This document shows, one piece after another, positions 11,812 through 40,450 of a stretch of DNA of 64,000 nt (positions are counted from its first letter, which is position 1; each line of letters starts with the position of its first letter). A program made the translations under genes and the position numbers. The stretch is from Antedon mediterranea (Eukaryota; Animalia; Echinodermata): contig NC_092672.1 in assembly GCF_964355755.1 (NCBI RefSeq), positions 124,001 through 188,000 on the forward strand. Direction: 5' to 3'. Under the pieces are notes generated by a model. That model was not told the DNA's origin. It saw only the letters and a list, made by a program, of their open reading frames with translations, and did not search any database.

Positions 11812-13620
11812 CCAAAACACTTCTACCTTTATAGTATGAACAATTATTAATCGAATCTGATAAAAACATAACACAATTCGAAACAATAAATGGCCTAAAT
11901 GTAAAACCCTATATTTTTTTAATCATCGAAACGATATGAGACACATTTTTTTTTTTAGTTTAACAAACATACGTTCAGCAACAAGCCGAGTGAAGACTTG
12001 ATGGGCTAAATCCTAATAGGTCATTTATTACAGTAAATTAGCGGCGGCACTTGAAAGCATTATTATTAGCCTAAGTTTAAAGATTTATTCCATGTCGGTT
12101 GATAGCAAATTATACTGGATAAACGATGAGAAAGCTCATCTACAATGTTTACAGCACATTTAAATAGAGATTGTTTCAATGTAAATTATGTAAATTAAGC
12201 AGTTCAACACGAATATATCACATCGGATACAGGAGTGTTTAGAAGACAAACTTTTTTATAAGAAAACTAAGCCTAATCTGTGAATGGCTGTGAGATATAC
12301 TAATGATTCAGCGTAAAAAATGGTTATACCTACTACTTTAGTTTGTTTGTAAGTCACTCACGACTCACGCCAATTCGTGCACAAATCGCTACTGTCTCAA
12401 AAGTGCTATTCCAAATAAATTATTATTGTTATGTGTTTCATAATAAAATATCGTAGTTTAGCCAATTATGATAATTCGAGGTTATAAAATTATAATGAAT
12501 AAAACATAATGTGACTATCACAACTTTAGCAGCACGTCTAACCCGTCGTGTTAAAAATCATTTTAACAATTCATTCATTACTTGACTTACTGCTGGTTTC
12601 CGTGTAATTTAAAGTTAGTAGGTAAGTAAAATAATGATAGCATTAAAGATAAAAACAATCGTTATTAATGTAGGCAGATTTATTGATCAGTATTATTTGG
12701 GTACTCTGTTTTGTTGATGGTTTTACTGCAATAAACACAGTTTAGTGGATCATCAGTAAACGTTATCTGAATTGGTAATCTATTCATTTAATGCTCTCAT
12801 ACATTTTATTGTGTTACTATCTCTTAATATAATGCACAGTATCAAAGAGTTAGATTCACACCTAAAATGTATTTCATGTACTTTTTTGTCCTCCTGAACT
12901 ACGGTGTGACATTCGCATCTTGATCACGTTGCATGTTCATCTTCTTTCGCCAAATTATTTCTAGAACGGCGATTTCCAAAAAAAAAATATGTCGACGATG
13001 TCACACAGTTTCAGAATAGACGTAAAGAAGAAGGTTAATTTTAATTACATTCATTCATTTAACCAATTTTTTAACAGTTTTTTGAAACAAATGTTAGTAA
13101 AATGTGCTTACCGTAGACTAGAGTACATTTCCATAGATCAGAGTAGTACCATCAATAATAAATAAGTTTTACTTTATTGCGCACCAGTGGATTGAAATAT
13201 GTTCATATATAATCAAATAATTTTAATATATAAAATATTTGAGGGAATAAAGGATTAATCATCGCACAACAGGATTACAATTTAGCCAAATATGATTACA
13301 AACATTTGCATCAGCAACCTCATTTATAAAAAGCAAGGGTGATACAAATGAGTTTTATATATACAGGGTTTCTAAGAAATATAGACAATACAATAGACAA
13401 TGTCGTCCTCAAGACACGGGTACACTCCGTTATTATAAGCTCTTTACTATTTTAGCAACACAATACAAAATATCTAAATAGAAACCGACCATCAGTAAAA
13501 TTCTATCTGGTAAATGTACGTTAATTCGATACATACCATTCAGAGCATTTATTATGCGTTTATTTTAAACTGATAGATTATATCTAGTCCAATTCACCTG
13601 ATATAGAGATGTATAACCAT

Positions 13621-13786
13621 CCAATCACGTTATCCAATTGCAAGAAACCGTACCTACTTTTTCATACACAATAGTTAAAATAACGTTATGGTTGGATCCA
13701 GCCAATCAAAAGTCGTATAGAGTCTGAGATTTGTGTAAAGAAGATTGGTCACGCAATAAAGGTTTCCAAGTCAGTTGTTATATAAA
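13621..13786 (+). promoter_or_regulatory. TATA/CCAAT core promoter of the cryptic neuropeptide gene
   Basis: TATATAAA at 13779-13786, about 95 nt upstream of the ATG. CCAAT at 13621 and 13702, ATTGG at 13744. Confidence 0.6.
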
Positions 13787-13879: not shown

Positions 13880-13960
13880 ATGAAAACTTTATTTCTTTCT
13901 GTAGTGTTAGCATGCAGTTTGTTGGTGGTATACACTTATCCATTAGATGAAGAGGAAAGG
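13880..13960 (+). CDS. Exon 1 (signal peptide) of putative novel neuropeptide precursor
   Basis: Basic N-terminus, hydrophobic core, probable cleavage near VYT|YP, acidic start of propeptide, consensus GTGAGT donor. Confidence 0.8.
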
Positions 13961-16900
13961 GTGAGTATACATTAATTATTGTATCAGTATTTCTTGTTTT
14001 AATCTATTCATGGGAATAGTGTGGAGGTGGAGTATTTTTTTAAACCAGAAAATGTACCAGCATCTAAAATTCTCATATAATGTAGTAATATAATAATGTT
14101 AGAATTGCCAGAAAATACAACGCACAAAAGATATAAACTACCTAATAGAAAATGAATACCGACAGAGTGATTCAATTGGTAGGCCTATCTTAGCGAGAAA
14201 ACGGGATGTTAGGGTAACCAATACAAATGAATACCGACAGAGTGATTCAATGGTAGGTCTATCTTAGCGAGAAAACGGGATGTTAGGGTAACCAATACAA
14301 ATGAATACCGACAGAGTGATTCAATGGTAGGCCTATCTTAGCGAGAAAACGGGATGTTAGGGTAACCAATACAAATGAATACCGACAGAGTGATTCAATT
14401 GGTAGGTCTATCTTAGCGAGAAAACGCAATGTTAGGGTAACCAATACAAATGAATACCGACAGAGTGATTCAATTGGTAGGTCTATCTTAGCGAGAAAAC
14501 GGGATGTTAGGGTAACCAATACAAATGAATACCGACAGAGTGATTCAATGGTAGGTCTATCTTAGCGAGAAAACGGGATGTTAGGGTAACCAATACAAAT
14601 GAATACCGACAGAGTGATTCAATGGTAGGCCTATCTTAGCGAGAAAACGGGATGTTAGGGTAACCAATACAAATGAATACCGACAGAGTGATTCAATTGG
14701 TAGGTCTATCTTAGCGAGAAAACGCAATGTTAGGGTAACCAATACAAATGAATACCGACAGAGTGATTCAATTGGTAGGTCTATCTTAGCGAGAAAACGG
14801 GATGTTAGGGTAACCAATACAAATGAATACCGACAGAGTGATTCAATTGGTAGGTCTATCTTAGCGAGAAAACGGGATGTTAGGGTAACCAATACAAATG
14901 AATACCGACAGAGTGATTCAATTGGTAGGTCTATCTTTGCGAGAAAACGCAATGTTAGGGTAACCAATACAAATGAATACCGACAGAGTGATTCAATTGG
15001 TAGGCCTATCTTAGCGAGAAAACGGGATGTTAGGGTAACCAATACAAATGAATACCGACAGAGTGATTCAATTGGTAGGTCTATCTTAGCGAGAAAACGG
15101 GATGTTAGGGTAACCAATACAAATGAATACCGACAGAGTGATTCAATTGGTAGGCCTATCTTTGCGAGAAAACGCAATGTTAGGGTAACCAATACAAATG
15201 AATACCGACAGAGTGATTCAATTGGTAGGTCTATCTTAGCGAGAAAACGGGATGTTAGGGTAACCAATACAAATGAATACCGACAGAGTGATTCAATTGG
15301 TAGGCCTATCTTAGCGAGAAAACGCGATGTTAGGGTAACCAATACAAATGAATACCGACAGAGTGATTCAATTGGTAGGCCTATCTTTGCGAGAAAACGG
15401 GATGTTAGGGTAACCAATACAAATGAATACCGACAGAGTGATTCAATTGGTAGGCCTATCTTTGCGAGAAAACGGGATGTTAGGGTAACCAATACAAATC
15501 ATATACATATCATAAGTTATATTATATTGTGACATTTTATTGACTAATCGTTATTTTGAAAAGTATTATCAATGACAACTGCATTCGAATTATATACAGA
15601 AGTAGGATCAGACATTTCGTATCATTGCTTTCCATTAGACTCGGTACCAAACGTCACTTTGAACAATTAGGAAAAAGTAGAGTTAGAGTTGAAATGGTAT
15701 ATTATTTTAGGCGTAATAAAACATGTGGCTCGTAGATTTTATCCTACAGCATGTTAAATGTTGTTTTAGTCTGCTGGTTATATCTGTCATTGGATTTCCT
15801 TTGGTATTTATTTCTGTAAAAATTAAAAAACTTATCATACGACAATAGCCTAATACAATAAACGATACGGTACATTATTAGTCTATTATCTATTTTATTA
15901 CATTTATATCAAATTCATTATGCTTTTCCGGGTATTCTTATTACTAAACATGGACTGATGGGTTTACTTGCTTACTGTAAGGAACATAATTATAATGCAA
16001 TTATAATAATTCGAACAATAAAGTAGTATAGTTGATATCAGTAGGCCTGCTGTAGTATTATTTCATAGTATTCAATAATACTGAAAATACAAGTTGACAT
16101 AATAGTACCGCGAATATTCATGAGCTGTATAGGTATTTTATGTACGGAATAATTGAATTTTATCTAAGTAGTTAGAAGATGTTACTACCGGTAACTAGAA
16201 TTCAAACTGACGGGCGTGTATTCTTATTTAGAACAGTGCACTTTAACGAGAAGAAAAAAACCACATTGAGTGACGTGAACTAAATGTATCACAGTATATA
16301 CCTTCGGTTTTATGTTCGTAAACCTTTTGAAATATGTCTAACGCCGCGTTTGCCATTCTGAATGGGGGAGTTTACCATCATATTGATCGTCAGGTACAGT
16401 AATCAATTGACACTGAATGTATCACAGTATATTATACCTTCGGTGTTATGTTCGTAACGCCGCGTTTGCCTTTCTGATTGGGGGGGGACTTTACCATCAT
16501 ATTGATCGTCAGGTACAGTAATCAATTGACACTGAATATATCACAGTATATACCTTCGGTTTTATGTTCGTAACGCCGCGTTTGCCTTTCTGATTGGGGG
16601 ACTTTACCATCATATTGATCGTCAGGTACAGTAATCAATTGACACTGAATGTATCACAGTATATACCTTCGGTTTTATGTTCGTAACGCCGCGTTTGCCT
16701 TTCTGATTGGGGGACTTTACCATCATATTGATCGTCAGGTACAGTAATCAATTGACACTAATATATCACAGTATATACCTTCGGTTTTATGTTCGTAACG
16801 CCGCGTTTGCCTTTCTGAATGGGGGAGTTTACCATCACATTGATTGTCACGTAGAGTAATCAATTGACACAGAATGTAGCATCAAACAACTTTAAGTATG

Positions 16901-19900
16901 ATACCTTAACAATTAAAATAATCATAATTCTTTGTCTCAATAACATAATTGCTTATAAATTAATAAAATAAACATAATATAACGGGGAAAACATGAATTT
17001 GGAAGGCATAAAAACTAAGCCACAATTACAGTTTAGACACAAAAGATAACCACCACTGTGCAGAACTATCATCATTTGAATTAGATAGTTCATGATATGT
17101 TTATATATAATAGTAATTAGAATATTGTACAGATAACTGTGCAAAACTATCATCATTTGAATTCAATAATTCATAATAATATTTAGATAATAATAATTAT
17201 ATTGTAACGATTGTGCAGAACTATGTGAATTCGATAGTTCATGATAATAGATAATGATTTAATTAGAATATTGTATTTTAATGTTATGAACGTGACACAC
17301 TTTAAACTAGTAATTCAAGATAATCTCCATTTTAATCGCAATTAAAATATTCGATATAAGTGTAAATCCACTCTATATATCGATTAAGCTTCTAACGGGA
17401 TTTAAAATTACTTTACTGGACAAAATGGATTAAATAACATAATGCACTTGTTTAGATAGTTTTTTCCATAACATGAAAAGCTATCAGGTAAAACGGCTTT
17501 CAACGGTACCATTAAATCGCCTTATATCAATATGATTAGGTCACGTGATTCTATAATGATGATACTTTGATGCTGCAATCATCACCAGCGGCAAATAATT
17601 TACGTACGCATGCGCATTACATAATTGAGAAGGCGGAATAAGTTTGACAGTGGTAGGATTGCCAGAAGCAAACTAACGATAATTACCATTGCTGTAATAG
17701 TGGTTTGAAAAGCAATAACCATTCAAATGATTTACAGTAAATCTGATAAACGTCATCCTCTTCCAAATTTTGTAAAAACACAAGTTGCAGCAGCCCTACC
17801 AGTATATAATATATTATTTAACTATCTCTCGGTGGATTTCCGATGATTTGATGGTTAAATATCTAAAATGTTTACTTTCACAAGGTAGGCATATCGTACA
17901 TATTTCTTCAATGTAAATCAAGTAATAAATCTACAAAAATGAGTCTGTACTAAAGTCGTGACTTAAAATAAACATTATTCTATTCTATCCATACTTTAAT
18001 TGTTGTATGAACCCGTGGGCTGTCATTTACAAACACTTTTAAAAGTTTGCAACAACACCTATCAATTGGAATTTCACTAAAAACAGTTTGATTTTCAACA
18101 CAAATCCTTATAACGAACTTGTAAGGCGTAAATGTAATAGGTTACGTTGTACTTGTAGGTGTAATGAACCAATGCAAATTCGTGTACTTAATCCTCTTGT
18201 AATAATAAACACGCTGAGATCGACCTATACTGACGTCGTATATTATGCAAAATATTTTGACTTACTCAAACATAAAGTGCTTCAGCCAAAATGTTAAACA
18301 GAAGCACAAATAAATATTGTGTAAATATTCAAAGGTCATACAAGCCTAACTTTAAAAAAATGAAGCAAGAGATTAGAACAATAAACTTATCTAGGCAACA
18401 TTCCATTTTTGTTTAATTAAATTGTCATTTTATACAATATGCTACAAAGACTATAAATTAAAAATAGTATACATTCCTTCAAAATGGTAAATTGATATGG
18501 TCAAATTGGAAATATAAAATTTCCCACCGTCGGCCTATAAAATAAATTGACATTTTGGTCTACTCAAGACCACGAATTAAACCTACTAAGAAAAAGTTCA
18601 ACTTTTTTCAAAATTGGTAATTCTGACAGTTACGATACGGACAAGTTATATGATATTAACAGCATAGTCCTAATCATTCAAAATGAGAAATTTAGCAATT
18701 TACTTAACCTGTCCAATGTATTCAATGTTCAAACTGTTGGTAAAGTTCTATGGAAATGTACCTAACCTGTCCAATGTATTCTATGCTCAAACTGTTGGTA
18801 AAGTTCTATGACAATGTACCTAACCTGTCCAGTGTATTCAATGCTCAAACTGTTGGTAAAGTTCTATGGCAATGTACCTAACCTGTCTCATGTATTCAAT
18901 GCTCAAACTGTTGGTAAAGTTCTACTTCAATGTACCTAACATGTCTCATGTATTCAATGCTCAAACTGTTGGTAAAGTTCCATTACAATGTACCTAACCT
19001 GTCTCATGTATTCAATGCTCAAACTGTTGGTAAAGTTCCATTACAATGTACCTAACCTGTCTTATGTATTCAATGCTCAAACTGTTGGTAAAGTTCTACT
19101 TCAATGTACCTAACATGTCTCATGTATTCAATGCTCAAACTGTTGGTAAAGTTCCATTACAATGTACCTAACATGTCTCATGTATTCAATGTTCAAACTG
19201 TTGGTAAAGTTCTACTTCAATGTACCTAACATGTCTCATGTATTCAATGCTCAAACTGTTGGTAAAGTTCCATTACAATGTACCTAACATGTCTCATGTA
19301 TTCAATGCTCAAACTGTTGGTAAAGTTCCATTACAATGTACCTAACATGTCTCATGTATTCAATGCTCAAACTGTTGGTAAAGTTCTACTTCAATGTACC
19401 TAACATGTCTCATGTATTCAATGCTCAACCTATTGGTAAAGTTCTATGGCAATGTACCTAACCTGTCCAATGTATTCAATGCTCAACCTATTGGTAAAGT
19501 TCCATTACAATGTACCTAACCTGTCTCATGTATTCAATGCTCAAACTGTTGGTAAAGTTCCATTACAATGTACCTAACATGTCTCATGTATTCAATGCTC
19601 AAACTGTTGGTAAAGTTCTACTTCAATGTACCTAACATGTCTCATGTATTCAATGCTCAACCTATTGGTAAAGTTCTATGGCAATGTACCTAACCTGTCC
19701 AATGTATTCAATGCTCAACCTATTGGTAAAGTTCTACTTCAATGTTTATACACTATGCTCTTTGTAGCATGACTATTCAATGCTCAACCTATTGGTAAAG
19801 TTCTACTTCAATGTTTATACACTATGCTCTTTGTAGCATGACTATTCAATGCTCAAACTATTGGTAAAGTTCTACTTCAATGTTTATACACTATGCTCTT

Positions 19901-22900
19901 TGTAGCATGACTGTTTAAATTCTACAGGGATTGTATTCGGTTTCTTATTTATATATGAATGATAGGTTCACCAAAACAATAATTATTACACAATGAGATG
20001 TTTCGCAACTGAGGGATATTTGATTCCAGACTATAAATTGATTATTAATGACTTTAAAAAAAAATACTAAATGTACGGTATGGTTATATATACCAACATA
20101 TTGTAGGTGTACTCCTACTCACAAAATAATTAAAAAATGAAAAAGTTATTTACAGTATGTCGGACTTATGGCTTTTAAGTCAAAGAGCTTCATACTGTCT
20201 CCCAGACTTTAAGTGATATAAATAAATCAAATGCAAGTAATTTCTTATGGTAGTTATATTTTAGTTCATTAAATTTAATTTAGATATTTTTTTCTTTTAA
20301 GCTGCCGGTGTAATTTTCTTAATAATCATTACGTCTTTCAAAAAAAATGAAATATTATACATATTATTTGATGGGAGTATTGGATAGAATTACAGAATAG
20401 TTAGTGTCAGATTAATAATTCATACAAGTATGAATAATTATTCGAATTAGTGTGTATAATACTCATGTGGTAGACTAGAGACTAGATTCCACTTATGAAA
20501 ATTGAAACAAAAAACCAGAAATAATCCATGTAGCCTACTGGCCTATATAATTACATTTAAGCACGGCCTAACACCCGTATTATTGACAAAATTATATTTC
20601 AAATGAAACTGGATATCCAATTTTTCGAATCTAATAAGGGCAACCAGAAGATTAGAAGATAAGTATAATTACATATTATTGATTTTGGCGAATACTATCA
20701 CTCTGTAGCCTAACATGATACAAAAATTACCTCGACAATTAATAATGTCATTATGCTACTTTTATTTTATGAAGAGTGGTTTGGAATTGACGGCCGAGTT
20801 GTCAAATCAAATGAACAATCCGTCTTTATTTTATTCTTTATCATTAGTTGTCTATGAAACGGAACAATTTAAAACATCCCAAAGTAATCTGATCGATAGG
20901 CTCCACTTTTTTCGTTATTTTAATCATTTTCAATGTTATTGTGTTATTTTTAATTGTTAATTCATTACTAAGCGTGTTTTAATTATAATATCACTGGTAA
21001 CAGTATAACTTAAATACATTGTAAACATAATATTTGCAATAAAGTGGTTATATGCCTACATTATTGAGGAACACAAACGAACTATGTTACTGTAAACATG
21101 GTATAGGCCTATGCTACATTTATCGTCGATGACGAATTATACCGTCTACTTCAGTGTTGGTTTCAAATAAAGATTCTTTGAAACATTGACCTATAAAACA
21201 TTTGCCATAAAATCACTTTTAACGTATAATTGTGTTCAATTTATACCATTGTATAATGTTTTGTAATTCTACTGAAACTGTTTAAACAATAATAATCGCA
21301 TCACCTTATTAATGAATAACTGAGAATAAATGGGAATTCTGTACGAACGACGATTTACGAGAATATAAATGTTCTTGTTGGATACCTCGGGTCTTCATTA
21401 GCTCGCATAATGACATATTGAACCAATACACCTACTGTATTATTAAATGATTTACTTTGTACCTACATGTTTAAGAGCTTATGATTCCTAGATTACCCAA
21501 ATGAAGCAAGGTGATAATGCAACAACATTTAGTGATTATTAAGAACATGGGCCATTAAAATACTTTAAGAGTCACAAGTGGATGTAATCCACAACTTATT
21601 AATAGTAACCGTTTGATACATATAGTCATTTAACTAATCCAGCGACTTGTTATATGCAATGTTTGATTAGTTACTCATTCACAGATTTGCTAAAGAGTTT
21701 TATTTCGATTTAAATGTAATATAGTAAAACTATTTAGATTAATATAATGCATTTTCAAGGACGCGGTTAGATATTAATTGATTTGCCCTACTTTCTGGGT
21801 GGGTGTAAGTAAATCTTGTATTTACTAATTGTAACATTGAATGTTCTAACTAACCACAATGTCTGAGTAAACCTGGTTCTATAAATAAAATCTTACCCAT
21901 CCTATCTTTATACTCATGGGGTTTGGTCAAAGTATGAAGGAAAATATATTTATTCTTTCATCCATGGTGAAAGCACCGTCGTTTAAATTTGATTCTACAA
22001 ACAACAGTTTAGGTTAGTTAGCTCCAAGACATTATACTCTTACTCCCTTTCTCTACTTTAAAACTTCAAAATTGCCTATTCAAAGTCTAATTTTTAAGAT
22101 CCTAATTGTTCATGTTTTTGGAGGACACATCTTTGATGGATATACCTTGATCATTTTTCGGAGTTTCTTCTATTGATTGTAAGTCGTTTAAAAATAATCA
22201 TAACCATATACAAATTGATATTAATAATAATAATTCTAACTGTCGTTTAAAAATTGCTCAGAAGTAGTTAATATTTCATAATCCCAGTACGCGTACACAT
22301 TTCACATACGAAATTCAATGATATTAATCTGACATTGGATATCAATATCAATAATATGTCTTGTAACGCACGGCCTCTCAATGTCAATTACACAACTTGT
22401 ATCGTATTCCAAAGATCTTAATCTTTGCAATTAAATATACATAATGTCTAAGAGGTAAATGCTATAGGACACAATTTTGTTTTATGAATAAATTTAAAAA
22501 TTAGCTGTGATACTTTCATTTATCTCTGACAACATTATATCATTTCAAAGGTATAACTTGATAAGACGCTAGTTTGATTCAACAACGCATGTATTTTGAA
22601 TGAATAGTTAAATATTAATTGTAAAACATACTTTTAAAATATACGTGTCAATTTATAATTGTTTTATATGGTTAGGCCTACGATTAGTGACATCAATTTC
22701 TTTTTATAAGATATAGAGGAGTATTCATAATTGGGTAGTGGTGAAATGTTATGAAGAGATACATTGTCTTAACACAAACTGTTTGGATTACTTTTCCTCA
22801 TTGTAGGAGAGATAATGACAACATCATAGTCTGGTTTGCGTATGGGAGGTGCATCTTGGGAGGTTTGGATAAATCATAATACAATAAAGATTTTCCGGGA

Positions 22901-25900
22901 TGATACCGTATAATATTATTAGGATGGGTAAGCTGTAATGGTTGTGATTTGTATTCCAGTGAGGATGTGCTGATTTTGCTTAGGTGGAACTTATCTACAT
23001 CATTATTAGTGAGGATGTGCTGATTTTGCTTAGGTGGAACTTATCTACATTATTAGTGAAGATGTGCTGATTTTGCTTAGGTGGAACTTATCTACATCAT
23101 TGTTAGTGTTTTACATGACGTACCGTGTATCAATATCATTAACTTGTTACTTACAATGAACTCCATAATCTCAATTTCAGCCTTTAAATTTCTACATGAT
23201 CATATTAAGACTTAAATAAAGAATAAATATGATTTTGATTTAAATTAAACATTTTTCTTATCATTAGACGTAGATCAGACTACACAGTGCATTTATAGTG
23301 TATGTACAGTAACAAGAAACAATCCGAATACACATAATAGTTTCCATCTATATAGTAATGATTCGACTGGGAATTAAATTCTACTTTTATTAATAATTAT
23401 AAATATCTATGTCAAAAGTGGTAATCATATTTCGCAATAAAAGTTCTATTATTTTTTCAATTTAAAGTAATGCATAGATAAATTTTGACACATAAAAGCA
23501 AGTGGCTATAAAGGAATAGTAATAAAGTTTAACTTAAATTCACGACTTGTGGTCATAAAATGATAGAAGATGCATCTCCTACAAATATACCAAAACCCAA
23601 CACTTTATCAGTCTACTGACACCGAATGAAAAAGAATACGAACACACACAAACCACGTATTGAATATATATTAGTAATTATTCAACAAAATTACACTCTC
23701 TCTTGATAATTCGTTCAAATTTGATTTTTTAAGGCTGACACGTCGAAGTACTTAGTGTTACCATCTATCTATACTTATCCAGATATTTTAAGATTTCTCA
23801 AGATTATCATGTTATCCTATAAAATTAAAAACCTGATAAAAAGTGACGTGATGTATTTGTTACAGTTATACTGATCGTCGGTAGTGTGTAAATTCTCCTT
23901 TCTTTATGTAGACTAAGTTTACAAATTAATAATGATCATCTTCTAGGGTATACTACCTTATTTTATACGCATCAGCTTAAAAATTGCGTTCAGCCAATTG
24001 CAGTTCTTTTAATTCGTATTGGTATTCTGAAAAAGTTCTTTCAAATGCTCTGGCTAAACGTGTTTGTAACGGTTGTTTTTTTTAAAGTGTTTAGCTGCTC
24101 AATCAATCCAAGTATAATTTGATAAACTAGTGAACAGTGGGGATTATGACCTGCTCAAATTGCACACTTCAAAACTTTCTAAGGATAAATCGGGTTCATA
24201 AACACTAATCATCATCTTAGTGTTTTGATCATTCTCTTGTGTTTCTACAATGTTCTAATATATTCTCAAACACGCGCACAGTCTCAATATGTTTGTGTTT
24301 CATAGTTGCGTTTGTTAATTACCAATATCCCGAACAATTAATTCAGTAATCATTCTTAACTACTTCTTACAATTAGTAACATTTAGGTATTTTTAGATTC
24401 AGTATTTCTAATTTACAACATCTGATATTGAAGAATATGGCACAAAACCGACTACTTACTTATAGCATTGTTTTCAATGTCGTATCAACATTTTTAAAGA
24501 TTTTCACATATTTTTAGTGAATGTCACAGCATACATCAATATTTTGCAAATAATCTTGATACACAATTAATACAATATAAAATAAGTGTACGATGCAAAA
24601 AAAGCTATCTCTTTACTTTATTATACAGTATCTATAAATATATTCTCCACTAATACTAAATCACTGTTCAGCATCAACTGAATTTAATCCGTGTAAATAA
24701 ATTGCAATTTATTGATTGACTGGAATTACCAATATAATTGAAGTTGCTTTTTTCAACGTATATTAATACTCTTAGTATCATTATAACCTTAATGAATTAA
24801 CGTAGACGACAAAAACAATAGATTGTTTCGAGTTCGAAAACAAGTTCACAAATTCTTGACTACATACTAGATACTATCTACATTATGCAAGAGTACGACG
24901 ATTTTCAATATGATGCGACCTGTTGAAATCAATCAATTTGAATTCTGCTACAAATGGTAACCTTTCTATCATTGATTTGTAATTAATCTCGTCACGATTA
25001 ACTTCCTTCTTTATTTTTTGAATTATGTGAACCTTTTATAATTGTCAAAACATGTATCGAAAGATACATGTCGCTTGGGTTCTAAATCACCGGTAATAAA
25101 TTGTGCATAACCAAAGTCGATTAATAGGGACTCCATAATTTCCAAAGAAATGAAACGCATACAAAAATTAAAAATCTAATGTACTTAAGTCTAAACTTCA
25201 TGGCTCCGATTTATTATTATACCTAGCAAGTGTTTTTTGTCTCGTAGACTGAGACAAATTAAACGAAGATTACTGTATATCTTTCACTAAATCTGTACAT
25301 TTTATTTATTATCTCTTGTCGTTTTTTTTTTCTTATATTAGGAAAATGTCAATAAACCGTCTACATAATTATTAAACTTTACAGAATCATTCTGTTTCCT
25401 TTAATTCATTATCATCATAAAACCAAAATAGGTGAAAAATCCTATTAACCTATATATACCACAAGAAAATAGAAGTGAAAATGAAGTGATTTAACTTAAA
25501 CAAGAAAAAACTTAATATAAACTAATACAAAATATTAATGTCTATCTCTGTTATAATAGAAGTTAAATCATGACTTCATCAGTTTGTAGAAGATGCCGTG
25601 CCAGTTCTTTCAAAGTCATTGTGATGACTGTATTAGATTGATTCCTTATTACATTTACGACTTTTTTTATAATAGCACTTTGGCGTCAAGCTAGTTCCAG
25701 TTTTCGAATTCGTTGTCGTGTTATATTCCTCTTCACAGTTTAAATTCTTTTTTTAAAATCTGGGTTTATGTTTCGCGTGCGAAATACAAGTTATTAATGT
25801 TTTTATAATAAACGATAGGCTATATAAAATAAAAGCTATTGTTTTGTGGGTCATTTTTTTTTTGCATACTGCCTTTAATCAATTTTAATATTTTTATCAA

Positions 25901-27998
25901 GGACATAGTTTGTTCAAAATAATAATACACCTTATAAGCATGTTTTGTTTATGGTGTAGTTAGGCCTAATAATAATAATAATAATCTTCGTTTATTATTT
26001 CATAGGCCTAATAATAATAATAATAATCTTCGTTTATGATTTCATTTAATAAGACGTTTATCAATAATTGCCTATCATTGTGTAGTTTTAATAACAATTT
26101 ATGTTTGTTAGTAGAAACTATGGAAGAGTGAAATTAGAATTAATTAAACCGAATGAACATTGTTAAATATCACAATTATTAATATTAATAACAGTAAACT
26201 TGGAATAAGGTACTTCTGAGTTAATTTCATATTAACCAATTTGTGGTAAATAACCATGGTGATTTTTAAATTGAAATGTTAGAAACCCGCAGTATGACTC
26301 ACTATGCGTTTGTCTTTATTAAAAATTAATATTGTAATAGGAAGCAATATCCCTTCAGACCAATAGTATAACGTTAGTATTTTAGCATTTAATTCTTAAA
26401 GGCTGGTTGTGATGTACACTTACAGATGACCTGATGAAAATATAACGGTAATATACTGGCAATATAAGATCAAAATGTACACCGACTTTTAAACACGTAA
26501 TTAAAATACATTGCATGAAAAATGTAGGCATTTTTCTTAGAAACAGTAAATCAAATATTTAATCTACGTGAACTTCGGGCTCCATTCATGATGTTCTTTT
26601 TTATCTCATTCTGAATTTCTTCAGCATGATATGTCACAAATAAAAACGACATAAGGAGTAGTTTATTTTCTAATAACTTCAAAATTACTCTTATTGATTT
26701 TTAAAAATAATTATCGTATATTGATTTGCATCAATAACATGAAAAAAGTGTCTATTTATCTACACCACTAGTTTAACACATAAACTATATTTATCATAGA
26801 GGAGCTGTTACGTGCATGGATGATTTTTAATAACCCACTAGAAGTATTTAATTATCTTCGGTTACCAGTATTCTAAGACTAATCAACTGAGAATGTTTTC
26901 TTAACCTACGTTACCACACTACAACTAAGATGCTGTACAATGACTACAACTAAGATGCTGTACAATGATTACAACTAAGATGCTGTACAATGATTACAAC
27001 TAAGATGCTGTACAATGATTACAACTAAGATGCTGTACAATGATTACAACTAAGATGCTGTACAATGATTACAACTAAGATGCTGTACAATGATTACAAC
27101 TAAGATGCTGTACAATGATTACAACTAAGATGCTGTACAATGACTATAACTAAGATGCTGTACAATGATTACAACTAAGATGCTGTACAATGATTACAAC
27201 TAAGATGCTGTACAATGATTACAACTAAGATGCTGTACAATGACTACAACTAAGATGCTGTACAATGATTATAACTAAGATGCTGTACAATGATTACAAC
27301 TAAGATGCTGTACAATGATTACAACTAAGATGCTGTACAATGATTATAATTATCAACTAAATTAGAAAAGAAAACAATTGAAAAACACCAAATGTAATAA
27401 ATGATGGACATAGGTTTACGATCCTATTGAATATTTAATATTAGGGAATAAAAGTGAAATCACAATAGCATCTTGTAACAAATATACATAAAATATAGAT
27501 GACTGAAGCAAAGACAAAATGCAAGCTATAAATATAGTTTAGTATTCCAAACACGTTTATTTTAATATATAATTATTATCAATAATAAATATATACCATG
27601 GCAACAGCAAATAAATGTTTTTCCGTTTTTAAATCTTATATTAATCAAGTAAATGCTAAGTTATCGTAGGACGTCCCAAAGAACAAGCGATACGGATTGT
27701 TTACAAAAAACGACTTTCTATATAAGTAGACTAATTATAATTTATTTGTTCAATTTCCAATATAATAAAATAATATTCATTTTCAATTTACTTACGGAAT
27801 CCAAATCATTCTATCTTCCAGGACTATCAGATGCTGAGGCGAATTTTGAAAGAAGTGGGTGAACTACATGAAAAGGCTGCTAAGAGAGGAAAACCTTGTT
27901 TCGCAGACAATCCAATGACGTTGTATGAATGTTACGGTTTCCATAAACGCGATGCTTCATCGGACCTTCTTAACGAATTAGGTCAAGACGGCAACTAG
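13880..27998 (+). CDS. Putative novel neuropeptide precursor, 85 aa, two exons (13880-13960, 27822-27998), single Cys-bridged peptide
   Basis: Exon 1 (AAAACATG context) encodes MKTLFLSVVLACSLLVVYTYPLDEEER and ends at a phase-0 donor AGG|GTGAGT. Exon 2 follows acceptor TTCTATCTTCCAG in phase 0: DYQMLRRILKEVGELHEKAA-KR-GKPCFADNPMTLYECYGFH-KR-DASSDLLNELGQDGN*. Joining the exons across the 13.9-kb intron is an inference. Confidence 0.8.
14151..15499. repeat. Minisatellite, 75-bp (74/75) unit x18
   Basis: Unit AATGAATACCGACAGAGTGATTCAATTGGTAGGYCTATCTTAGCGAGAAAACGGGATGTTAGGGTAACCAATACA. Confidence 0.95.
16283..16876. repeat. Tandem repeat, ~110-130-bp unit x5
   Basis: Recurrent ATCACAGTATATACCTTCGGTTTTATGTTCGTAACGCCGCGTTTGCC...CAGGTACAGTAATCAATTGACAC. 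Confidence 0.9.
18704..19913. repeat. Minisatellite, 58-bp unit x~18, switching to a ~69-bp variant x3
   Basis: Core TATTCAATGCTCAAACTGTTGGTAAAGTTC; terminal units incorporate TTATACACTATGCTCTTTGTAGCATGAC. Confidence 0.93.
22957..23108. repeat. Tandem repeat, ~50-bp unit x3
   Basis: AGTGAGGATGTGCTGATTTTGCTTAGGTGGAACTTATCTACAT repeated. Confidence 0.85.
26920..27346. repeat. Minisatellite, 25-bp unit x17
   Basis: Unit TACAACTAAGATGCTGTACAATGAY. Confidence 0.95.
27822..27998 (+). CDS. Exon 2 (peptide-coding) of putative novel neuropeptide precursor
   Basis: Polypyrimidine/CAG acceptor; 58 codons plus TAG; two KR sites bracket a 19-mer with C-x10-C; AATAAA at 28321. Confidence 0.8.
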   Translation, partial: DYQMLRRILKEVGELHEKAAKRGKPCFADNPMTLYECYGFHKRDASSDLLNELGQDGN

Positions 27999-29924
27999 TA
28001 GTACAAATGCATTACAAAATTCATTCATTTTAGCAGCACTATTTTCTCTTGTTTCAACAGTACAAACTGTAGTAAATTATTCTTAAAATAGACTTATTTT
28101 TCTTAACGTATGATGTGACAAGAACAAATATTCAGAACATTTAAATTGCACGTGCATGGCTCACCTGGGTGTGTGAGTATGATGTCATCAAACAAGAGTC
28201 AAAAACAAGACTTCATTCTATAGCGCGTTATTTTATTAAAAACGTCATTTAAATGACGGAACATTTTAAAACACTAAAAAGAAAGTATCTTAACTTTGTT
28301 TTTTTTTATCTGAGAAATTCAATAAATTAATAACTAGATGCCTGACATGTATATGTAATCTATGGATAGTCGGGATTGTAATTAAGTGTTATTTGGGTGA
28401 CACATTGTGTTGGAAATGACAAAACAAAGCGTACATTATATTCTAAGTAGATACTGGCCGACAGTCTTATAAGATGATTAAATTATTAGACTATTAATAA
28501 GTAAAGCTATTAATATTTATAATTTATATAATCTCATGCATATATTAATTTGGCGTCTGGCTTTAATCCAATTTTGTATCTATTAAGGTGTAATGTTATT
28601 GTAAAAGTTACATTATTTGGCTCCAATTGGCCCAGACTTGTAACGTTATGTAAATTTGAATTATAATAAATTATTAATTATTATTTTCATTATCATTACA
28701 GTATAATTAACGACATTGGGACTTTCTAAACACAACCAAATTTAAAGTTAAATGAATATATAAATGATTACCAGTATATCTGTGTTATTTCGATATTGTA
28801 TTAAATCAGTGACATTTTTACTTCTGACAATTTTATTATCATATGATATAGGGCCTATTTAATATAAAAAATTAAATGGTAAAATTGTATTTTTATCTCA
28901 GAATAGCTTGAGCTTGACTTGAGTTATTATTAGTAATTTAATCATCACACTTAAATAATATTATAATATTTCAGTCTAAATCTATATTTATTTAGAATGT
29001 ATTTTATCACATCATTTGAATTGTTGTCCCAGGTGATTAAATGGTTTTAAAATACAGTCACATAGATAATTTGCAATATGTACAATTTATTATAATTTGC
29101 ATTTTTCATTTTTTTTTTGGTCAAATAAAGGTAAAAAAAACCTTCAAAGTAAATACTTACATAATTGGTTTTCTTTTTTCTAACACTGTAATTGGAGCAA
29201 TATATTGAGAGTAAGATTTATGGTAATGGTGACAACGGAGTTGATGGTGAACATCTCGCCAGTTAGAATACGGATAAAATTGGGTTTTTTTTATGATATT
29301 TATGTATTTTTAGTAAGTAATAATTAAAAAAAAGTCTGTCACCATTCACCCTCATATTTCACTTGCTGGATAGTATGCTGTATAAGTTATAATAATTAAA
29401 TAGCCTACTATTAAAGTATGTTGTGTAGAGTCCAATCTCTATGATTGTATATACTACGTATTATTTAAAAAATAATAATAAAATCCAATGGATCAATGCG
29501 GTGCACGACCTTTCGAGTATTTTGATTCTATTTTGTACATATTAAGCGAGCATGTTGATGGCCACTATAATGAAAGGCCGGCCGGCGACGACGCATACAA
29601 TATTACGTCCACACGTCCACAATCCATCCACTGCCTGGTGCTTCTGCCTTCTATTTTATAAGTTAGGCTACATGAAATTGAGCTTCCTCACATGTACCAC
29701 TGGCTGTAATTACGCGTTAATTCAATTCTATATGATGCAACAACACTGTGATATACAAAATTAATACAGATACAGAGGTCGAGCTTCAGATATTCTACTG
29801 GTGGACGTTTTTCTATATCGTATTCTTAAGGACAATTTCCTTCTAATGAAACATATCTTGGGAGACCTCTGTTAAATAGCCAATGCATTGGCTCTATTTA
29901 TATAATTATTAGTGTGTTGTTCGT

Positions 29925-30235
29925 AATTTTCTGACATTATAAAACGGATGTTCTTAAAATTGAGGGCGCTAAACATACAATTTACGAGATCATAAAAGGT
30001 TGCGTAAGCCAGAAGAAAAAAAAATGTGGTGTGCTCCCTTGCCTCTAGCACGGTAAGGCCCTCTCACAGCCTTGGGTACACATCAGATGCCTTGATGTTA
30101 CCGCCTCATGATAATCTGTGAACCCAAAACACAGAGGCTCGCATAGCTTTAACTCTTTTCCACCGAGACCGGCATGGGGTTTGAACCCACGATAATCGTG
30201 TTCCACGACGCTCTATCGACTGAGCTATCCGGCCC
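29925..30235 (-). mobile_element. tRNA-derived SINE
   Basis: Minus-strand head GGGCCGGATAGCTCAGTCGATAGAGCG...GTGGGTTCAAACCCC (A and B boxes); body homologous to the copy at 31773-32050. Confidence 0.75.
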
Positions 30236-31110
30236 GCGATTTTTTTTTTCGTACATAAGTTGGGGACCCCTCATGAAACGTCACAAAATAAACATGAATA
30301 ATTCATCAGTTCAACTTGTTGTTCCGTGTGCACCCAAGCGTATAGCAACAAGAAGTGATTACACAACTGCGATACGATACTTTCTACAGTTAGGCCTAGG
30401 ATTTTAAGTCAATTCACGTGATTGCCTTCGCGCACTCTTCTTCGAGTCGAGGCTAATCGACAGCTGCTAGGCAAGACATTAAACTAAGTAGTAATTCATT
30501 GGACAGCCCAAAGAAAGCTTAGACCCACAAGAATAAAGAATGTGTATAATTTGTGTACTGTAATTTTTTAATTCTGCTATTTTATTATCAAACAATATGC
30601 ATGTACTCAAAGGAACTTAAAAAATGCGCGTATATCAACACATGAGATGGGAAGATTAGACCCACGAGAATAAAAAATGTATTTTTGTGTAATGTTTATT
30701 GTTTAATTTTCCTGACTTATTACTCTGACTCTCTGACTGTGTCATAACTAAACTAACACACACGTCACACACACCAACACAGCTACTACTAGAATAGACA
30801 TGGGTTTAGAGACTAGTAATTAGGCCTAATAGTATCAATAGAAACTATAATTTTAACACGTAATTCTTTAGTAATAAATTATATTTAAAACACCATAAAC
30901 TAAAGGCTGATTATTTCGACAATCTACACGCGGCAACCACAGCGGAGATAGGCCTAGAATCGTACCGCACTTGTGTAAACTGTAATCACTTCTGGTTGCT
31001 ATACGCTTGGGTGCACACGGAACAAGAACATTTAAATGATGAATTATTCATGTTTATTTTGTGACGTTTCATGAGGGGGTCCCCAACTTATGTACGAAAA
31101 AAAAAATCGC
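30236..31110. mobile_element. MITE with ~125-bp TIRs and 9-bp TSD (Mutator-like)
   Basis: TIRs GCGAT(T)nCGTACATAAGTTGGGGACCCC...AAGTGATTACA and reverse complement ending at 31110. Perfect ATCCGGCCC duplication at 30227-30235 and 31111-31119. Confidence 0.88.
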
Positions 31111-34002: not shown

Positions 34003-35367
34003 TTATTCGGATTTTCCGTCATCTGAACTAATTGATCGTTTTTTGAATCCGGAAATACGACCATTCATTCCAGAGGAAAGGCCTCCATGTAAAAACGACG
34101 AACCTTTTTTGAAACCATGGAGACTGTCGTGTGTTTTAAAATCGTCAAATATTGCTCGCTTTCCATTAAAATATTTGCTACCTAATGTGTCCATACCACC
34201 ACTTCCCGGAAACGCTCGTTTTCCTGTAAAATATCCATTGCCAAGGGTGTCCATTCCACCACTTCCCGGAAAAGCTCGTTTTCCTGTGAAATAGCCATTT
34301 CCTAGTGTGTCCATTCCACCACTTCCCGGAAACGCTCGTTTTCCTTTGAAATATCCATTGCCTAGTGTGTCCATTCCACCACTTCCCGGAAACCCTCGTT
34401 TTCCTTTAAAATATCCATTACCAAGGGTGTCCATTCCACCACTTCCGGGAAACCCTCGTTTTCCTTTGAAATATCCATTGCCAAGGGTGTCCATTCCACC
34501 ACTTCCGGGAAACGCTCTTTTTCCTGTGAAATATCCATTGCCAAGGGTGTCCATTCCACCACTTCCGGGAAACGCCCTTTTTCCTGTGAAATATCCATTG
34601 CCTAGTGTGTCCATTCCACCACTTCCGGGAAAAGCTCTTTTACCTGTGAAATACCCATTGCCAAGTGTGTCCATTCCACCACTTCCGGGAAACGCTCTTT
34701 TTCCTGTGAAATATCCATTGCCAAGTGTGTCCATTCCACCACTTCCGGGGAACGCTCTTTTTCCTGTGAAATATCCATTGCCTAGTGTGTCCATTCCACC
34801 ACTTCCGGGGAACGCTCTTTTTCCTGTGAAATATCCATTGCCTAGTGTGTCCATTCCACCACTTCCGGGAAACGATCTTTTTCCTGTGAAATATCCATTG
34901 CCAAGCGTGTCCATTCCACCACTTCCGGGGAACGCTCTTTTTCCTGTGAAATATCCATTGCCAAGCGTGTCCATTCCACCACTTCCGGGAAATGCTCTTT
35001 TACCTGTAAAATATCCATTGCCTAGTGTGTCCATTCCACCACTTCCGGGAAACGCTCTTTTTCCTGTGAAATATCCATTGCCAAGTGTGTCCATTCCACC
35101 ACTTCCCGGAAACGCTCTTTTATCATTAAAACCTATTTTTTCTGAACTATCTTCAGTGCTATCTGCTGCTCGTTTTCCTGTAAAATATGACGCTCCTAGG
35201 GGATCCATTCCACCTGTAGGAAAAAGCCCACGTTTATCTTCATCATTTAATTGAAACAATTCATCATCGTTGGAACTAAAGTCCTTTTTGGATTTGATGA
35301 GGTTATCAATAAGTTCTTTGGCTTCTTCGTCCGCAATTTCTACATTACTAAGGACATCAGCTCGTGC
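34003..35367 (-). CDS. Exon 2 of pedal peptide/orcokinin-type precursor (60-nt coding repeat array)
   Basis: 455 codons; exact 60-nt period x16 with mainly synonymous variation. Confidence 0.95.
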   Translation of the reverse strand, partial: ARADVLSNVEIADEEAKELIDNLIKSKKDFSSNDDELFQLNDEDKRGLFPTGGMDPLGASYFTGKRAADSTEDSSEKIGFNDKRAFPGSGGMDTLGNGYFTGKRAFPGSGGMDTLGNGYFTGKRAFPGSGGMDTLGNGYFTGKRAFPGSGGMDTLGNGYFTGKRSFPGSGGMDTLGNGYFTGKRAFPGSGGMDTLGNGYFTGKRAFPGSGGMDTLGNGYFTGKRAFPGSGGMDTLGNGYFTGKRAFPGSGGMDTLGNGYFTGKRAFPGSGGMDTLGNGYFTGKRAFPGSGGMDTLGNGYFKGKRGFPGSGGMDTLGNGYFKGKRGFPGSGGMDTLGNGYFKGKRAFPGSGGMDTLGNGYFTGKRAFPGSGGMDTLGNGYFTGKRAFPGSGGMDTLGSKYFNGKRAIFDDFKTHDSLHGFKKGSSFLHGGLSSGMNGRISGFKKRSISSDDGKSE

Positions 35368-38300
35368 CTGAAAGTATGACATAAACATTTCAGTTTAATG
35401 ATATATCGTGTTATAGGAATAACTAATAACGTATATAATAATAATAATTATTACCAGTATACAATAATGTTTCTGTAAGTATTTATTTATCTACTAAAAT
35501 GTTCCAGTACAAATTGGTAGTAAAACCTCTGTGTACTAATATGTATTCAGGAAGTACTTGTTAGACCTGTTTAGGTTATTAATAGAAATAGCACTACCAC
35601 TACCAATGTTTTAGAATAATGAATGTGTATACTCGATCGTTGCAACACTATTTCAAACCAATTCTTTGTTAACAATCGCAAAATGTCTATCTAAGTTAAC
35701 ACATTTCCTTCAAAGCATCAATGTTGATTAATCTTAATGCACCCACCGATTAAGTTGAGAAAAAGAAAACTCTAGTAAACTAGTGCTCAACTGTATGTTA
35801 TTAACTTAATGTTTGTATCAAAGTACTATTGTATGTTACATGTTTAACTAATGGTTTACCATGTATATAACATATTTGTAAGATAAAGTATATACATTAT
35901 TAAATGACGTCAGAAGGAACAGATAAATTATCGATAACCAGTACAAATTTAAAGAAACAAACGTTTTATATAGTATTTAGAGCACGATGACACGATAATC
36001 ATAATAAATGGTCAGTAATGCGTGAGATAATGACAACAGTATGGACGAAAGAAGCAATGGTCGGGCTGCTAAGAGGTTTGGCGATTCCACGCTGGTGCTT
36101 ATTTTTGAAACAAATAATAATTACTCCCTAAATGCCTGTTACCAATTTCGCAACGTTAATGAAAGTAATCTTTAGTTAAAAGGACAGAATCATAAAGGAA
36201 TCAAGTAATAATTGCTCGCGATTAAAATAGTTTAGATGTATTCTGAGCATCCTCGCTCCTAGCAATTTATAGAATTGTTGTATTGACTGCTGCAGTTGAT
36301 GCTATGCCTCACTTGGTTTATCGTTGAATCAATCAGTTTACTATATAAGATTTCTATGAATCTATTAGTGAAGGTCTTTTGCTTCAAACACACAAATACT
36401 AATAAAAAAAACAATAATGATTTTCCAAAAGTATCGAGTTGGCCTGACGACAGTTTATCTTTTAGCGAAATAATAATTATTAATTTCAGTACTAAAATAA
36501 TGAGTCTATACAAAATTGATGCTGGAAAGGAAAGGTTAACATGCATGCAGTTGAATCCTATTTAAATAAAATTAATTATGGCACGAATATTTTACTTAAT
36601 TCAAGTAAATACAATTATAATTATAAACTGAATAGATTAGAAAATATATTATTATATTTAGCAATTGTAGGATACTAGGACTACTGTGAAATGTTTGTAA
36701 CTTCTAATGTACATTAAAACAAAATAATACATTTACAAACATTATGTTATGATTTATTATGACACTTCTTAGTAAAAATATAAAGCGATCCAAAATATGA
36801 CGAGTGTCTGGTTTACCCAGCTATGTTTAAGCTCATAAACAGATTTCATTATAAGGTGTAAACGTGTCTATGTGCTTCTTGTTGCAAGAGATGATACTAA
36901 ACCTCGTGTAAAATTCTTAGATTGAAAGGTAAGATGTTTTACGATTATGATTATGTTTCACGACATCTTAAGTTGAATAACCAATGGTATATTTTTTTAT
37001 ACAGGAACATTAAGAATATTTTTAGTGACAAAGCATTATTTCAATAAGTACACTAGATTATTAATTTATCCTTTTTAACAATTTATTTTTTAGACCTATT
37101 TGTTTTTATTTATTTATTATTATTTAAAGACAGGTAAATAGAAGTTCTTAGGAAGATCCAAGAGAAGAATAAAAGCCACTGTCATAAATTATGTAAACCT
37201 ACACCTATTTACTAACAGAAACTGTACATTACATAGTGTGTGTAGTATACGCAGTCAATAAATTACTAAAATTATTACTAATCACAAGTTTTTAAGGTGT
37301 GATTGAGAGTTTATTGATCAGGGTGCATTGCGCATGTCCAGTAATACCTACGAATTAGACACATGGGAAGCACCTTGGAAAGTATAATTTCGTAGTTTAT
37401 GATAAAACAAGCACAACGACGTTAATGTGGCCAAAAATTAACGACTCCCAGTAGACACAGTATATTACTTTATAGCTTGGTTTAATTAATTCATTTCTTA
37501 AACTCATAAATTGACTCCAATTGTGCGGGATTATGATCTGTCTCGTGATATGTTACGCTAGGCCACCTCACACCGTATGTATTAAAATCAATAGATCGTG
37601 ATCGTAGATTTAACAAAATCCTTGGAGAATAAAAAATATTCATTCGTAAAGTACTATGTTGTTTAAACTACTGCTTTATTTAAATTTTCAATCTTAAAAT
37701 ATCATTAATAGTATTTATAAAAACACTCCATAACTTAGTTCTTATCTGTTTTTTTTCCCTTTTTTTTCAAACTATAATATTACAGAACCATGGCTGATGT
37801 ATATGGTAAATGACTTCTGATAAATAGGCCTAAACAAATTATCGTTGAGCAGCAAACAGCACGTAAGACAACATATTGTATTATTATTACAACCTGAGAA
37901 AATATTTCAAAAGATTAAATATTTAGAATCATATTATCTCTAATGACTAGAAAATGTCAATGCTTTCGCTAGGAACTACTACTGGTCAATAACTCTGTAT
38001 ACTATTTAAATATTATCTTTATTTCTTCTTGTTCTCAATAGTACAATTTATGGAAATTATAAGAAGTGTTAGGTTAGAGAAACCACACAAATAAATCATA
38101 AACTAAATTGTCCATTAAAAATGTAAGACGTGTGCCATCTTTATGGTTAAGATGATCAAAGACATATTGGTTAAGCAATGTATGTGAATAAAAGCTTTTA
38201 AGAGTTAACGCAATTCACGCCGCGAAGGTCTTTACTAATATGTAAAGTGGAATTAAGACGAATCATTAGGAGGACGATTTACTATAAAGGGGTTAAATAT

Positions 38301-40450
38301 GATAAAAAAGTATTACGCAACAGATCTATTTTTAATTAAACTTAAGCATTCTACTTTTAAAATCACAATTAATTCATTGATTTAAAAATACAGGTCTAAT
38401 AAAAATGGAAAACAAGAAGATAAAATTCAGATAAAGATTTTTTTATAAAAAATATCTTTCGCTGAACTCTTTTTCGATAACCACCAGTGCAGAAAGGTAA
38501 GTGCTGCCATTTTGACCTCTCTCTCTCTCTCTCTCTCGTTCAAAGTCAACGTTCCAAGTTCAGATAGATGGAATACAGCATTTATTAAAAATGTATGATT
38601 GACTGACTTTTTAACTAAACAATTGAAATACAGAAAGCAATAGTTATTTCTGTGTAAACTTATAAAACTATTTCTAAATTTTTCCTGTCGCCAAAATAAT
38701 TTCTTTTTGGTTTAGGCCTAAACACATACTTATTCATTATCACTAAACTTCAGATAAAAGAAGGTTGGTTACGAATTACGAAAGCCTATCTTGACTAATT
38801 GTTTCAAAGTAAACATCGTGTAATAAACTTGAATCCTAATCGGCAACATTTCATACACGAGAGAATATTAAATTAAGTGAAAAATATGGTTCAGATAAAA
38901 GTGAGTCAGTCACTGGCCCCTCCTATCTCTAAAATGATTGTAATTGGTATTTTCTTCAATTTGAGGGAATATATAAGTTATACAAATAAATGGATTTTGA
39001 ATCTGAAATGAATAATTATTCCATCAACAAGAAATATAATAATACTAGACATTTAAAAGGCGGCTCTTATAAGAATATACGGTAATTTAGTAAAATTATA
39101 AGATGGCTATTAGCAACGTAGTAGGTATAAAATATGTTTACAAAGCGACATTTGTAGGTTGTATCACAACTTCAAAATGTGATTATTATTTTGAAATGAA
39201 CAATCTAATGTTTGTTGAGATTTTTTTCATTGTGATAATAATTATGGTGTACTATGACGGAACCCAATACGAAGACGCTTTCTTTGTTTCCATTTTAATA
39301 TTCATATCGTTAACAACGGAAAACTTTTTAAAATCTGAATTTGATTAGTTGAATATACACACAGTTTCAGGTTTATTAAAGTAGTGAGCTCATTATACCA
39401 CAGTACGATAAGACATTATTTAATGATATTTGTAAGTCGCCAGATACTATAGGATCGCATCGTTGCTTTATGATGAAAATGGGACGACTTTTTAGCTACT
39501 GTATTTAAAAAAAAGTGCGTGTGTTGTGGCTCATCAACCAATCTTACTGAAAGCTTAATAAAAGGGTAGAATGATTTCTATTCGTACAAAAAAATGCTGA
39601 GAATGATTATTATTTGGGATTAATAAATTTCAAAAATGAGGCCAAACTTATTACAACTTTCCATCTAAATCCCAGCTGTGAATGTCATCAAGTCATCGGT
39701 TCATCAATTTAAATGTCGAATAAAGTAATTGTTGTCTTTAGTGGATTATGATCTCTCTTCCTTTGGATTTCATTGAGGTCTATTCTTGTTCCTCATTATA
39801 CTTATAAAATATACTAATAATGATATTTTTCCCATCAACTTTCATTTTTTCAGTGGAAAAATAACTTGACTAAGATTATTTTATACATTGTTTACCTCTT
39901 TAAACATAAAGAAGACTTTGTATAGAAAAAAACTAACTTGGTAATGTTTTCCCAGTTAACTACCTGTCTACATTTTAAATACCTATTAATTTCATTTGCA
40001 TAAAACTAACTTGGTAATGTTTTCCCAGTTAACTACCTGTCTACATTTTAAATACCTATTAGTAAATCATTGCCGTTTGTACAAAAGGAATTATCAGATA
40101 CAATTTACGGTTTTGTAAATTTTGATTGATAATATTCTCATTAACTTAGAATTTTACAGAAATATTTCTCTGAGATTGTTACAATGCATATGAATATTAT
40201 TCTATGATGGTTTAAATACACACCTGCCTAAACAGAATTTATGGCGTTTTGCCGCCGAACGCCTAAACGTCAGTCGACTTTTTCTTAAAGTTGAATCTAC
40301 AATTTCACTATATTAAATTGATTTTACCTAATAGATGCATGCCATAATAACTAAACTTACCGCTTGTTCACTGCTCACTGTTGGTATTAGTGCCACATTC
40401 AGTAAACAGCCTACTAACCAAATACTACCAAACAATTTGAAATAAAACAT
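34003..40450 (-). CDS. Pedal peptide/orcokinin-type neuropeptide precursor, 484 aa, two exons (40450-40361, 35367-34003)
   Basis: Exon 1 is a signal peptide, MFYFKLFGSIWLVGCLLNVALIPTVSSEQA|GTAAGT (phase 0), and joins acceptor TACTTTCAG|GCA. An acidic spacer precedes KR-delimited GLFPTGGMDPLGASYFTG, 16 copies of (A/S/G)FPGSGGMDTLG(NG/SK)YF(T/K/N)G, and two divergent GF-ending peptides. The F..GG.D(P/T)L..G/YF motif matches echinoderm pedal peptides (e.g. starfish SMP FGKGGAYDPLSAGFTD). Confidence 0.9.
39931..40060. repeat. Direct duplication, ~72-bp period x2
   Basis: AACTAACTTGGTAATGTTTTCCCAGTTAACTACCTGTCTACATTTTAAATACCTATTA occurs twice. Confidence 0.85.
40361..40450 (-). CDS. Exon 1 (signal peptide) of pedal peptide/orcokinin-type precursor
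   Basis: 30 codons, hydrophobic core, GTAAGT donor, phase compatible with exon 2. Confidence 0.85.

Follow-up and report, generated by a model that had tools for sequence, protein, structure and literature searches.

A candidate two-exon prohormone gene for a predicted cyclic 19-residue peptide in the crinoid Antedon mediterranea

The starfish somatostatin-type precursor ArSSP1 (132 residues; PMC7536072) features a signal peptide, a spacer, a dibasic site, and a single copy of a non-amidated cyclic peptide, ArSS1; in echinoderm SS1 precursors this peptide is C-terminal. Peptides with one disulfide also occur in the CCHamide/EP group, where a C-aromatic-G-x-H sequence is found and a dibasic site and tail follow the peptide (PMC12969411; supplement of PMC8557429). 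For crinoids, 20 predicted precursors without a family are already in print (PMC9793003). Crinoids branch as sister to the remaining echinoderms, and the catalogue of their neuropeptides still has gaps. The locus described here lies in a 64,000-nucleotide stretch of Antedon mediterranea DNA (hereafter the window; assembly GCF_964355755.1, contig NC_092672.1, positions 124,001 to 188,000 of the forward strand), and all coordinates are given within it. On its plus strand, two exons were found that would yield an 85-residue secreted precursor and, from it, one disulfide-closed, non-amidated peptide of 19 residues (the 19-mer), a probable neuropeptide of no assigned family; we give this reading a probability of about 0.5. 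The precursor shares with ArSSP1 the order of signal peptide, spacer, dibasic site and single-copy, non-amidated cyclic peptide (the bond being a prediction in the crinoid), but it is shorter, and a 15-residue tail follows the peptide. Starfish SS1, for which mass spectrometry has demonstrated both the ring and the cleavage, has the same layout and ring size and can serve as an experimental model for the 19-mer.

The coding part of exon 1 (13880..13960, plus strand, phase 0) starts with the ATG at 13880, comprises 81 nt or 27 codons, and ends in a phase-0 donor (AGG/GTGAGT, GT at 13961). Its product is a signal peptide, likely residues 1-19 as judged by eye, and the beginning of an acidic spacer. 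The coding part of exon 2 (27822..27998, plus strand, phase 0) has 177 nt, i.e. 58 codons and the TAG at 27996-27998, and follows a CAG acceptor (27819-27821) that is preceded by a pyrimidine tract. Both exons are in phase 0, and thus 27 and 58 codons give a precursor of 85 residues. The predicted intron (13961..27821, plus strand, phase 0) spans 13,861 nt and is rich in tandem arrays. Upstream of exon 1, a candidate promoter, its function inferred, occupies 13589..13785 (plus strand); it features CCAAT at 13589, 13621, 13634 and 13702, ATTGG (inverted CCAAT) at 13744, and TATATAA at 13779. These five CCAAT-type boxes fall within 155 nt; of the first 20 of 25 such clusters, this is the only one that does not belong to a tandem array. 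No upstream ATG is present in the likely leader between 13790 and 13879. The promoter elements, exon lengths, phase match and precursor length agree with what a sequence-only reading of the window had claimed. That reading had also called the gene "cryptic"; both exons indeed lie outside the open-reading-frame track, but this means only that short exons escaped that track. Minisatellites were noted within the predicted intron, with 17-18 copies per array: a 75-nt unit (x18) at 14150-15499, a 58-nt unit at 18696-19745 and a 25-nt unit at 26920-27346.

Exon 2 encodes, in order, spacer, Lys-Arg (KR; 27882), the peptide, a second KR (27945), an acidic tail, and the stop codon; an additional RR is located in the spacer (27837-27842). 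The predicted mature 19-mer, GKPCFADNPMTLYECYGFH (27888..27944, plus strand), is thus bounded on both sides by KR, with processing and ring closure as predicted steps. Its Cys codons are at 27897 and 27930, with 10 residues between the two Cys, and no Gly precedes the second KR. The layout that the sequence-only reading had described, with two KR sites, C-x10-C and no amidation Gly, was therefore found as claimed, the ring itself being an inference. The computed monoisotopic mass is 2191.92 Da in the reduced form and 2189.90 Da with one disulfide. The peptide is near neutral and aromatic, and it contains no Trp. A signal peptide was called at a heuristic hydrophobic-core score of 3.17. A single-sequence structure model was uninformative (predicted local-distance difference test, pLDDT, 55.9).

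What was seen directly is the arrangement of the exons with their splice signals, the layout of the motifs, and the cover of the last exon in a probable RNA run; the mode of action was modeled on standard prohormone biology. The two exons would be spliced to one mRNA for the precursor, whose signal peptide (ca. 19 residues) would be removed on entry into the secretory pathway. A Cys-Cys bond would close the ring in the endoplasmic reticulum, a prohormone convertase would cleave at each KR, and trimming by carboxypeptidase would leave a free C-terminal His. The peptide may then be released from dense-core vesicles and act on a rhodopsin-type G protein-coupled receptor (GPCR); by analogy with other echinoderm cyclic peptides, muscle or gut would be the most likely target.

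The exon 2 region was present in five sequencing runs from one organism, and the contigs of four of these were compared over 27400-32000. One run, X1, is probably RNA (a guess at its status; no run was recorded as RNA); the others (X2, X4 and X5) are DNA-like and derive from one sample. A 506-nt X1 contig matches 27821-28298 (478 nt), and 28 nt of other sequence overhang its 5' end. A second X1 contig, which would continue the first across a 9-nt gap, covers 28308-29504 and ends 22 nt past AATAAA (29477-29482). X1 depth was 0 at 27400-27707, the only end of the intron that was compared, and at 29556-29863, whereas X2, X4 and X5 continue across both edges where X1 stops. This pattern is that of a spliced, polyadenylated last exon; exon 2 and a 3' untranslated region of ca. 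1.5 kb (27999..29504, plus strand, from the X1 contigs and ending 22 nt after AATAAA) are probably expressed. The X1 match includes 27821 and excludes 27820, a one-base overhang of the kind that an upstream exon with the last two bases of exon 1 would produce. The membership of exon 1 in the transcript, and with it a 13960/27822 junction, is likely as a prediction from sequence. The spliced transcript that the sequence-only reading had proposed would fit the contig edge at the acceptor and the contig end after AATAAA, with the junction itself as a prediction. Overall, the gene is best read as real and probably expressed, coding for a single-copy prohormone of ordinary design. Exon 2 showed no substitutions across the four runs, with too few sites for a selection test. 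In the 3' untranslated region, X1 and X2 both carry ca. 45 additional letters at 28906-28909 compared to the window, an indel polymorphism.

The depth of the X1 contigs over the gene was high (480-894, a poor measure of expression), in a run of unspecified tissue. This would suit a rival reading in which gland, skin or immune cells secrete the convertase-processed peptide in a defensive or structural role; defence peptides also use a layout of signal peptide, acidic spacer, KR and peptide. Against this reading, the 19-mer is neither cationic nor amphipathic, and a single small ring between a pair of KR sites is what peptide hormones typically show; a non-neuronal peptide of this kind is considered very unlikely.

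The exons were ranked using scoring tables and a heuristic signal-peptide score, and chance was estimated from 60 simulated 64-kb windows matched to the real one in 4-mer statistics. None of the 60 simulated windows had two Cys between KR sites downstream of a good acceptor, whereas the real window had one such stretch; if the acceptor was disregarded, the mean was 0.18 per simulated window. Four loose matches to the motif are present in the real window, and the one with an acceptor is exon 2. The KR-(two Cys)-KR arrangement behind an acceptor is thus more than chance. Exon 1 was the best of four candidate signal-peptide exons in 1-27800 (hydrophobic core 3.17), and its donor ranked second among 1,585 GT sites.

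Homologues were sought in several collections. When exon 2 was compared to a collection of 5.8 billion proteins, no candidates were returned at near lengths, and four were returned at longer lengths, none at E <= 10. Exact look-ups found nothing (0/3), and none of 595 pattern matches in metagenome contigs was confirmed. The best score in the ESM Atlas (0.78) was under the useful range, and no Pfam family was found. A sensitive search of representatives gave two matches, one to an F-box/LRR protein from Rhododendron and the other to the translation of a tandem repeat, which were rejected as sums of weak repeat matches; two kringle-domain matches in the PDB (E 0.64-0.71) were rejected as chance. 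As a positive control, a neighbouring pedal-peptide precursor (described below) with published crinoid orthologues was searched, and none of its 342 candidates reached E <= 0.001. The blanks for the 19-mer therefore carry no information on its novelty, and the protein collection appears to be without crinoid precursors.

The literature was searched in parallel. The sequence-only reading had suggested that the peptide may already be listed among unnamed predicted precursors; it is absent from the published crinoid list as far as the outline, parts of the text and seven term-searched supplementary files of PMC9793003 extend. A full-text search with a nine-letter piece of the peptide returned 0 papers. 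Among the matches listed, the peptide was also unmatched in the supplements of PMC5627052 (six files), PMC6586643 (three), PMC8557429 (one) and PMC6188537 (one), a search that sequences held in images escape. No crinoid catalogue later than PMC9793003 appeared in the literature searched. The 19-mer precursor is thus unlisted in the crinoid catalogue and assigned to no family, and such unassigned predicted echinoderm precursors already number dozens. If it is lineage-restricted, it would be one further unassigned crinoid precursor beside about twenty. The 19-mer is also a candidate test ligand for two published questions, namely the receptor for SS1-type peptides and the ligands of the expanded echinoderm relatives of bombesin receptors.

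Partial motifs of four families were recognized in the 19-mer, at nominal chance rates of 0.0009 (AST-C/SS1), 0.00015 (CCHamide/EP), 0.005 (pedal peptide) and 0.009 (luqin tail), for motifs chosen post hoc. The four matches are mutually exclusive, and in each case the 19-mer lacks something that defines the family. Since at most one family can be right, the low rates mainly show how easily significance is attained with motifs picked afterwards. The earlier statement that the peptide matches none of several cyclic families, with a faint echo of AST-C, holds in that the 19-mer departs from every family compared in a defining feature. That reading missed the RR in the spacer, the CCHamide-like C-terminus, the crinoid precursor PCNP3a and the adjacent pedal-peptide gene.

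The sequence-only reading had argued from the internal position of the peptide against AST-C and somatostatin. This argument is not decisive: in the Daphnia AST-C precursor, a basic site and a 15-residue tail also follow the peptide (supplement of PMC8557429), the 10-residue ring equals that of starfish ArSS1, and a phase-0 intron in the N-terminal part is common to SS/AST-C genes (PMC7536072). The last trait is a weak criterion, as the unrelated pedal-peptide neighbour has it too. An AST-C/SS1 relationship is further favoured by an N-P-M-T core (N-P-I-S in AST-C), an aromatic residue after each Cys, the post hoc motif rate given above, and a published crinoid list in which, within PMC9793003 and its supplements, no somatostatin/AST-C-type (SS1 or SS2) precursor is found. 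It is a better lead than had been allowed. Nevertheless, D-N-P replaces the FXP that defines AST-C, the GR motif of echinoderms is absent, four residues follow the second Cys (unlike AST-C/SS1), the second, phase-1 intron of SS1 genes (PMC7536072) is lacking, and Pfam gave no AST-C/SS1 match. We therefore hold it unlikely that the 19-mer is a divergent allatostatin-C or echinoderm SS1-type neuropeptide, be it the crinoid representative or an additional paralogue. Somatostatin and echinoderm SS2 are set apart by their FWK/IWK motif, given that the 19-mer is without Trp.

A relationship to CCHamide/EP rests on the C-terminal C-Y-G-x-H, as found in insect CCHamide (at the post hoc rate stated above), and on a Lys shortly ahead of the first Cys, as in EPs. 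In the leech EP precursor a spacer precedes the peptide (supplement of PMC8557429), earthworm EPs are non-amidated, and the starfish receptors ArBNR2-11 have no known ligand, with no endothelin system confirmed in echinoderms in the sources available. The end motif agrees in part: GGH, GAH or GGN in CCHamide/EP and G-F-H here share the first and last residue, whereas the middle one differs. Against the relationship, the precursor has no amidation Gly (earthworm EPs excepted), 10 residues separate the Cys vs. 8 in EP and 6 in CCHamide (PMC12969411; supplement of PMC8557429), and most CCHamide/EP peptides directly follow the signal peptide. Moreover, echinoderm CCHamide-like precursors have already been proposed, crinoid PCNP3 fits the CCHamide layout better, and neither the ET nor the CCHa/EP receptor clade includes ArBNR2-11. 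It is accordingly quite improbable that the 19-mer is a non-amidated deuterostome relative of CCHamide/EP (endothelin-related family) and ligand of an orphan echinoderm GPCR related to bombesin receptors. An idea of the same low probability is that the 19-mer founds an unrecognised echinoderm family, acting on ArBNR2-11-type orphan receptors and connecting protostome CCHamide/EP with vertebrate endothelin signalling through a peptide that has one bridge and no amide. The 19-mer may also resemble endothelin itself, for which no precursor was found for comparison.

Other families were compared as well. Crinoid PCNP3a (supplement of PMC9793003), likewise of unassigned family, has a single two-Cys peptide with a ring of 10 and four residues after the second Cys; unlike the 19-mer, PCNP3 is amidated, directly follows the signal peptide and has a Gly/Pro/Arg-rich ring, and the sequences are unrelated by eye. 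The C-terminal domain of luqin/RYamide precursors (PMC7041311) has two Cys 10 apart and a hydrophobic-Y-x ahead of the second Cys, as in the 19-mer, but the 19-mer ring has KR on both sides, and no RWamide follows its signal peptide. A hidden luqin exon in the intron was rejected, for neither RWamide nor a Gly-dibasic motif occurs in any plus-strand frame. Echinoderm MCH, which has D, W and R at conserved places between the Cys and a C-terminal location, was rejected too: the ring of the 19-mer has no Trp or Arg.

Several points weigh against a two-exon gene for a neuropeptide of no assigned family. The exon 2 acceptor, though good, does not stand out (by pyrimidine count it is among ranks 9-17 of 326). 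The one-base overhang fits two of the four candidate first-exon ends and thus lends modest support to exon 1 as its predicted partner. The RNA status of X1 is a guess, made for one study and an unspecified tissue. The collections searched yielded no orthologue in which the Cys pair and the KR sites could be compared, and the low nominal rates of the AST-C/SS1 and CCHamide motifs may mean that the peptide belongs, in diverged form, to one of the known families. The predicted status of the junction, the 13.9-kb gap and the rank of the acceptor would also suit a real exon 2 spliced to another upstream exon, in which case the 85-residue precursor would be wrong at its N-terminus. The second candidate whose end fits the overhang ends at 1115, with a borderline hydrophobic core (2.01 vs. 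3.17 for exon 1). A scan of the predicted intron for internal phase-0/phase-0 exons gave no candidate above equal thresholds, and exon 1 would otherwise be left an orphan despite its promoter, its favourable start context and a donor ranked second over 27.8 kb. Such an alternative first exon is regarded as highly improbable.

A complete pedal peptide/orcokinin precursor gene lies on the minus strand at 34003..40450 (exon 1 40450-40361, a phase-0 intron, exon 2 35367-34003), tail to tail with the 19-mer gene and ca. 6 kb from it, stop to stop. Its product carries ca. 17 related peptides, 11 of which are identical. The 5' part of the gene is nearly identical to A. mediterranea PCNP4 (PMC9793003), a match that points to an Antedon-like feather star as the source of the window. 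PCNP4 thus likely represents only the 5' portion of this precursor; the same paper reports that a pedal-peptide precursor was not found in this species. The proximity and the shared two-exon, phase-0 layout would suit an origin of the 19-mer gene as a degenerate local duplicate that retained one peptide and gained two Cys. Both genes also have a non-amidated G-F-x end, the last ten residues of the two precursors share seven identities, and crustacean-type orcokinin has the same last three residues before KR as the 19-mer. However, pedal peptide/orcokinin precursors are multi-copy and linear and have no Cys, and the D-[PT]-L core of pedal peptides is absent from the 19-mer. The pairwise E value of the precursors is 0.093, no similarity between the genes was detected at the DNA level or by tblastn, and the only one of 11 released pedal-peptide fragments that aligned better than shuffles (p < 0.05) is acidic spacer. 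Known echinoderm precursor paralogues sit megabases apart, and no precedent for adjacent paralogous precursor genes was found in the literature searched. Local duplication is deemed the least probable of the explanations weighed.

Between the two convergent peptide genes, at 30170-31560, high-copy interspersed repeats with a very high summed contig depth were observed in all four runs compared. Farther along the window, a Pfam match to PF04757 (E 6e-16) at 55834..56247 on the plus strand marks an exon of the Pex2/Pex12 peroxin family; we take it to be PEX10. On the minus strand, exons at 60511..63246 encode ankyrin repeats together with an SH3 repeat of the mind-bomb type (PF18346) and form part of a gene for a mind bomb-like E3 ligase.

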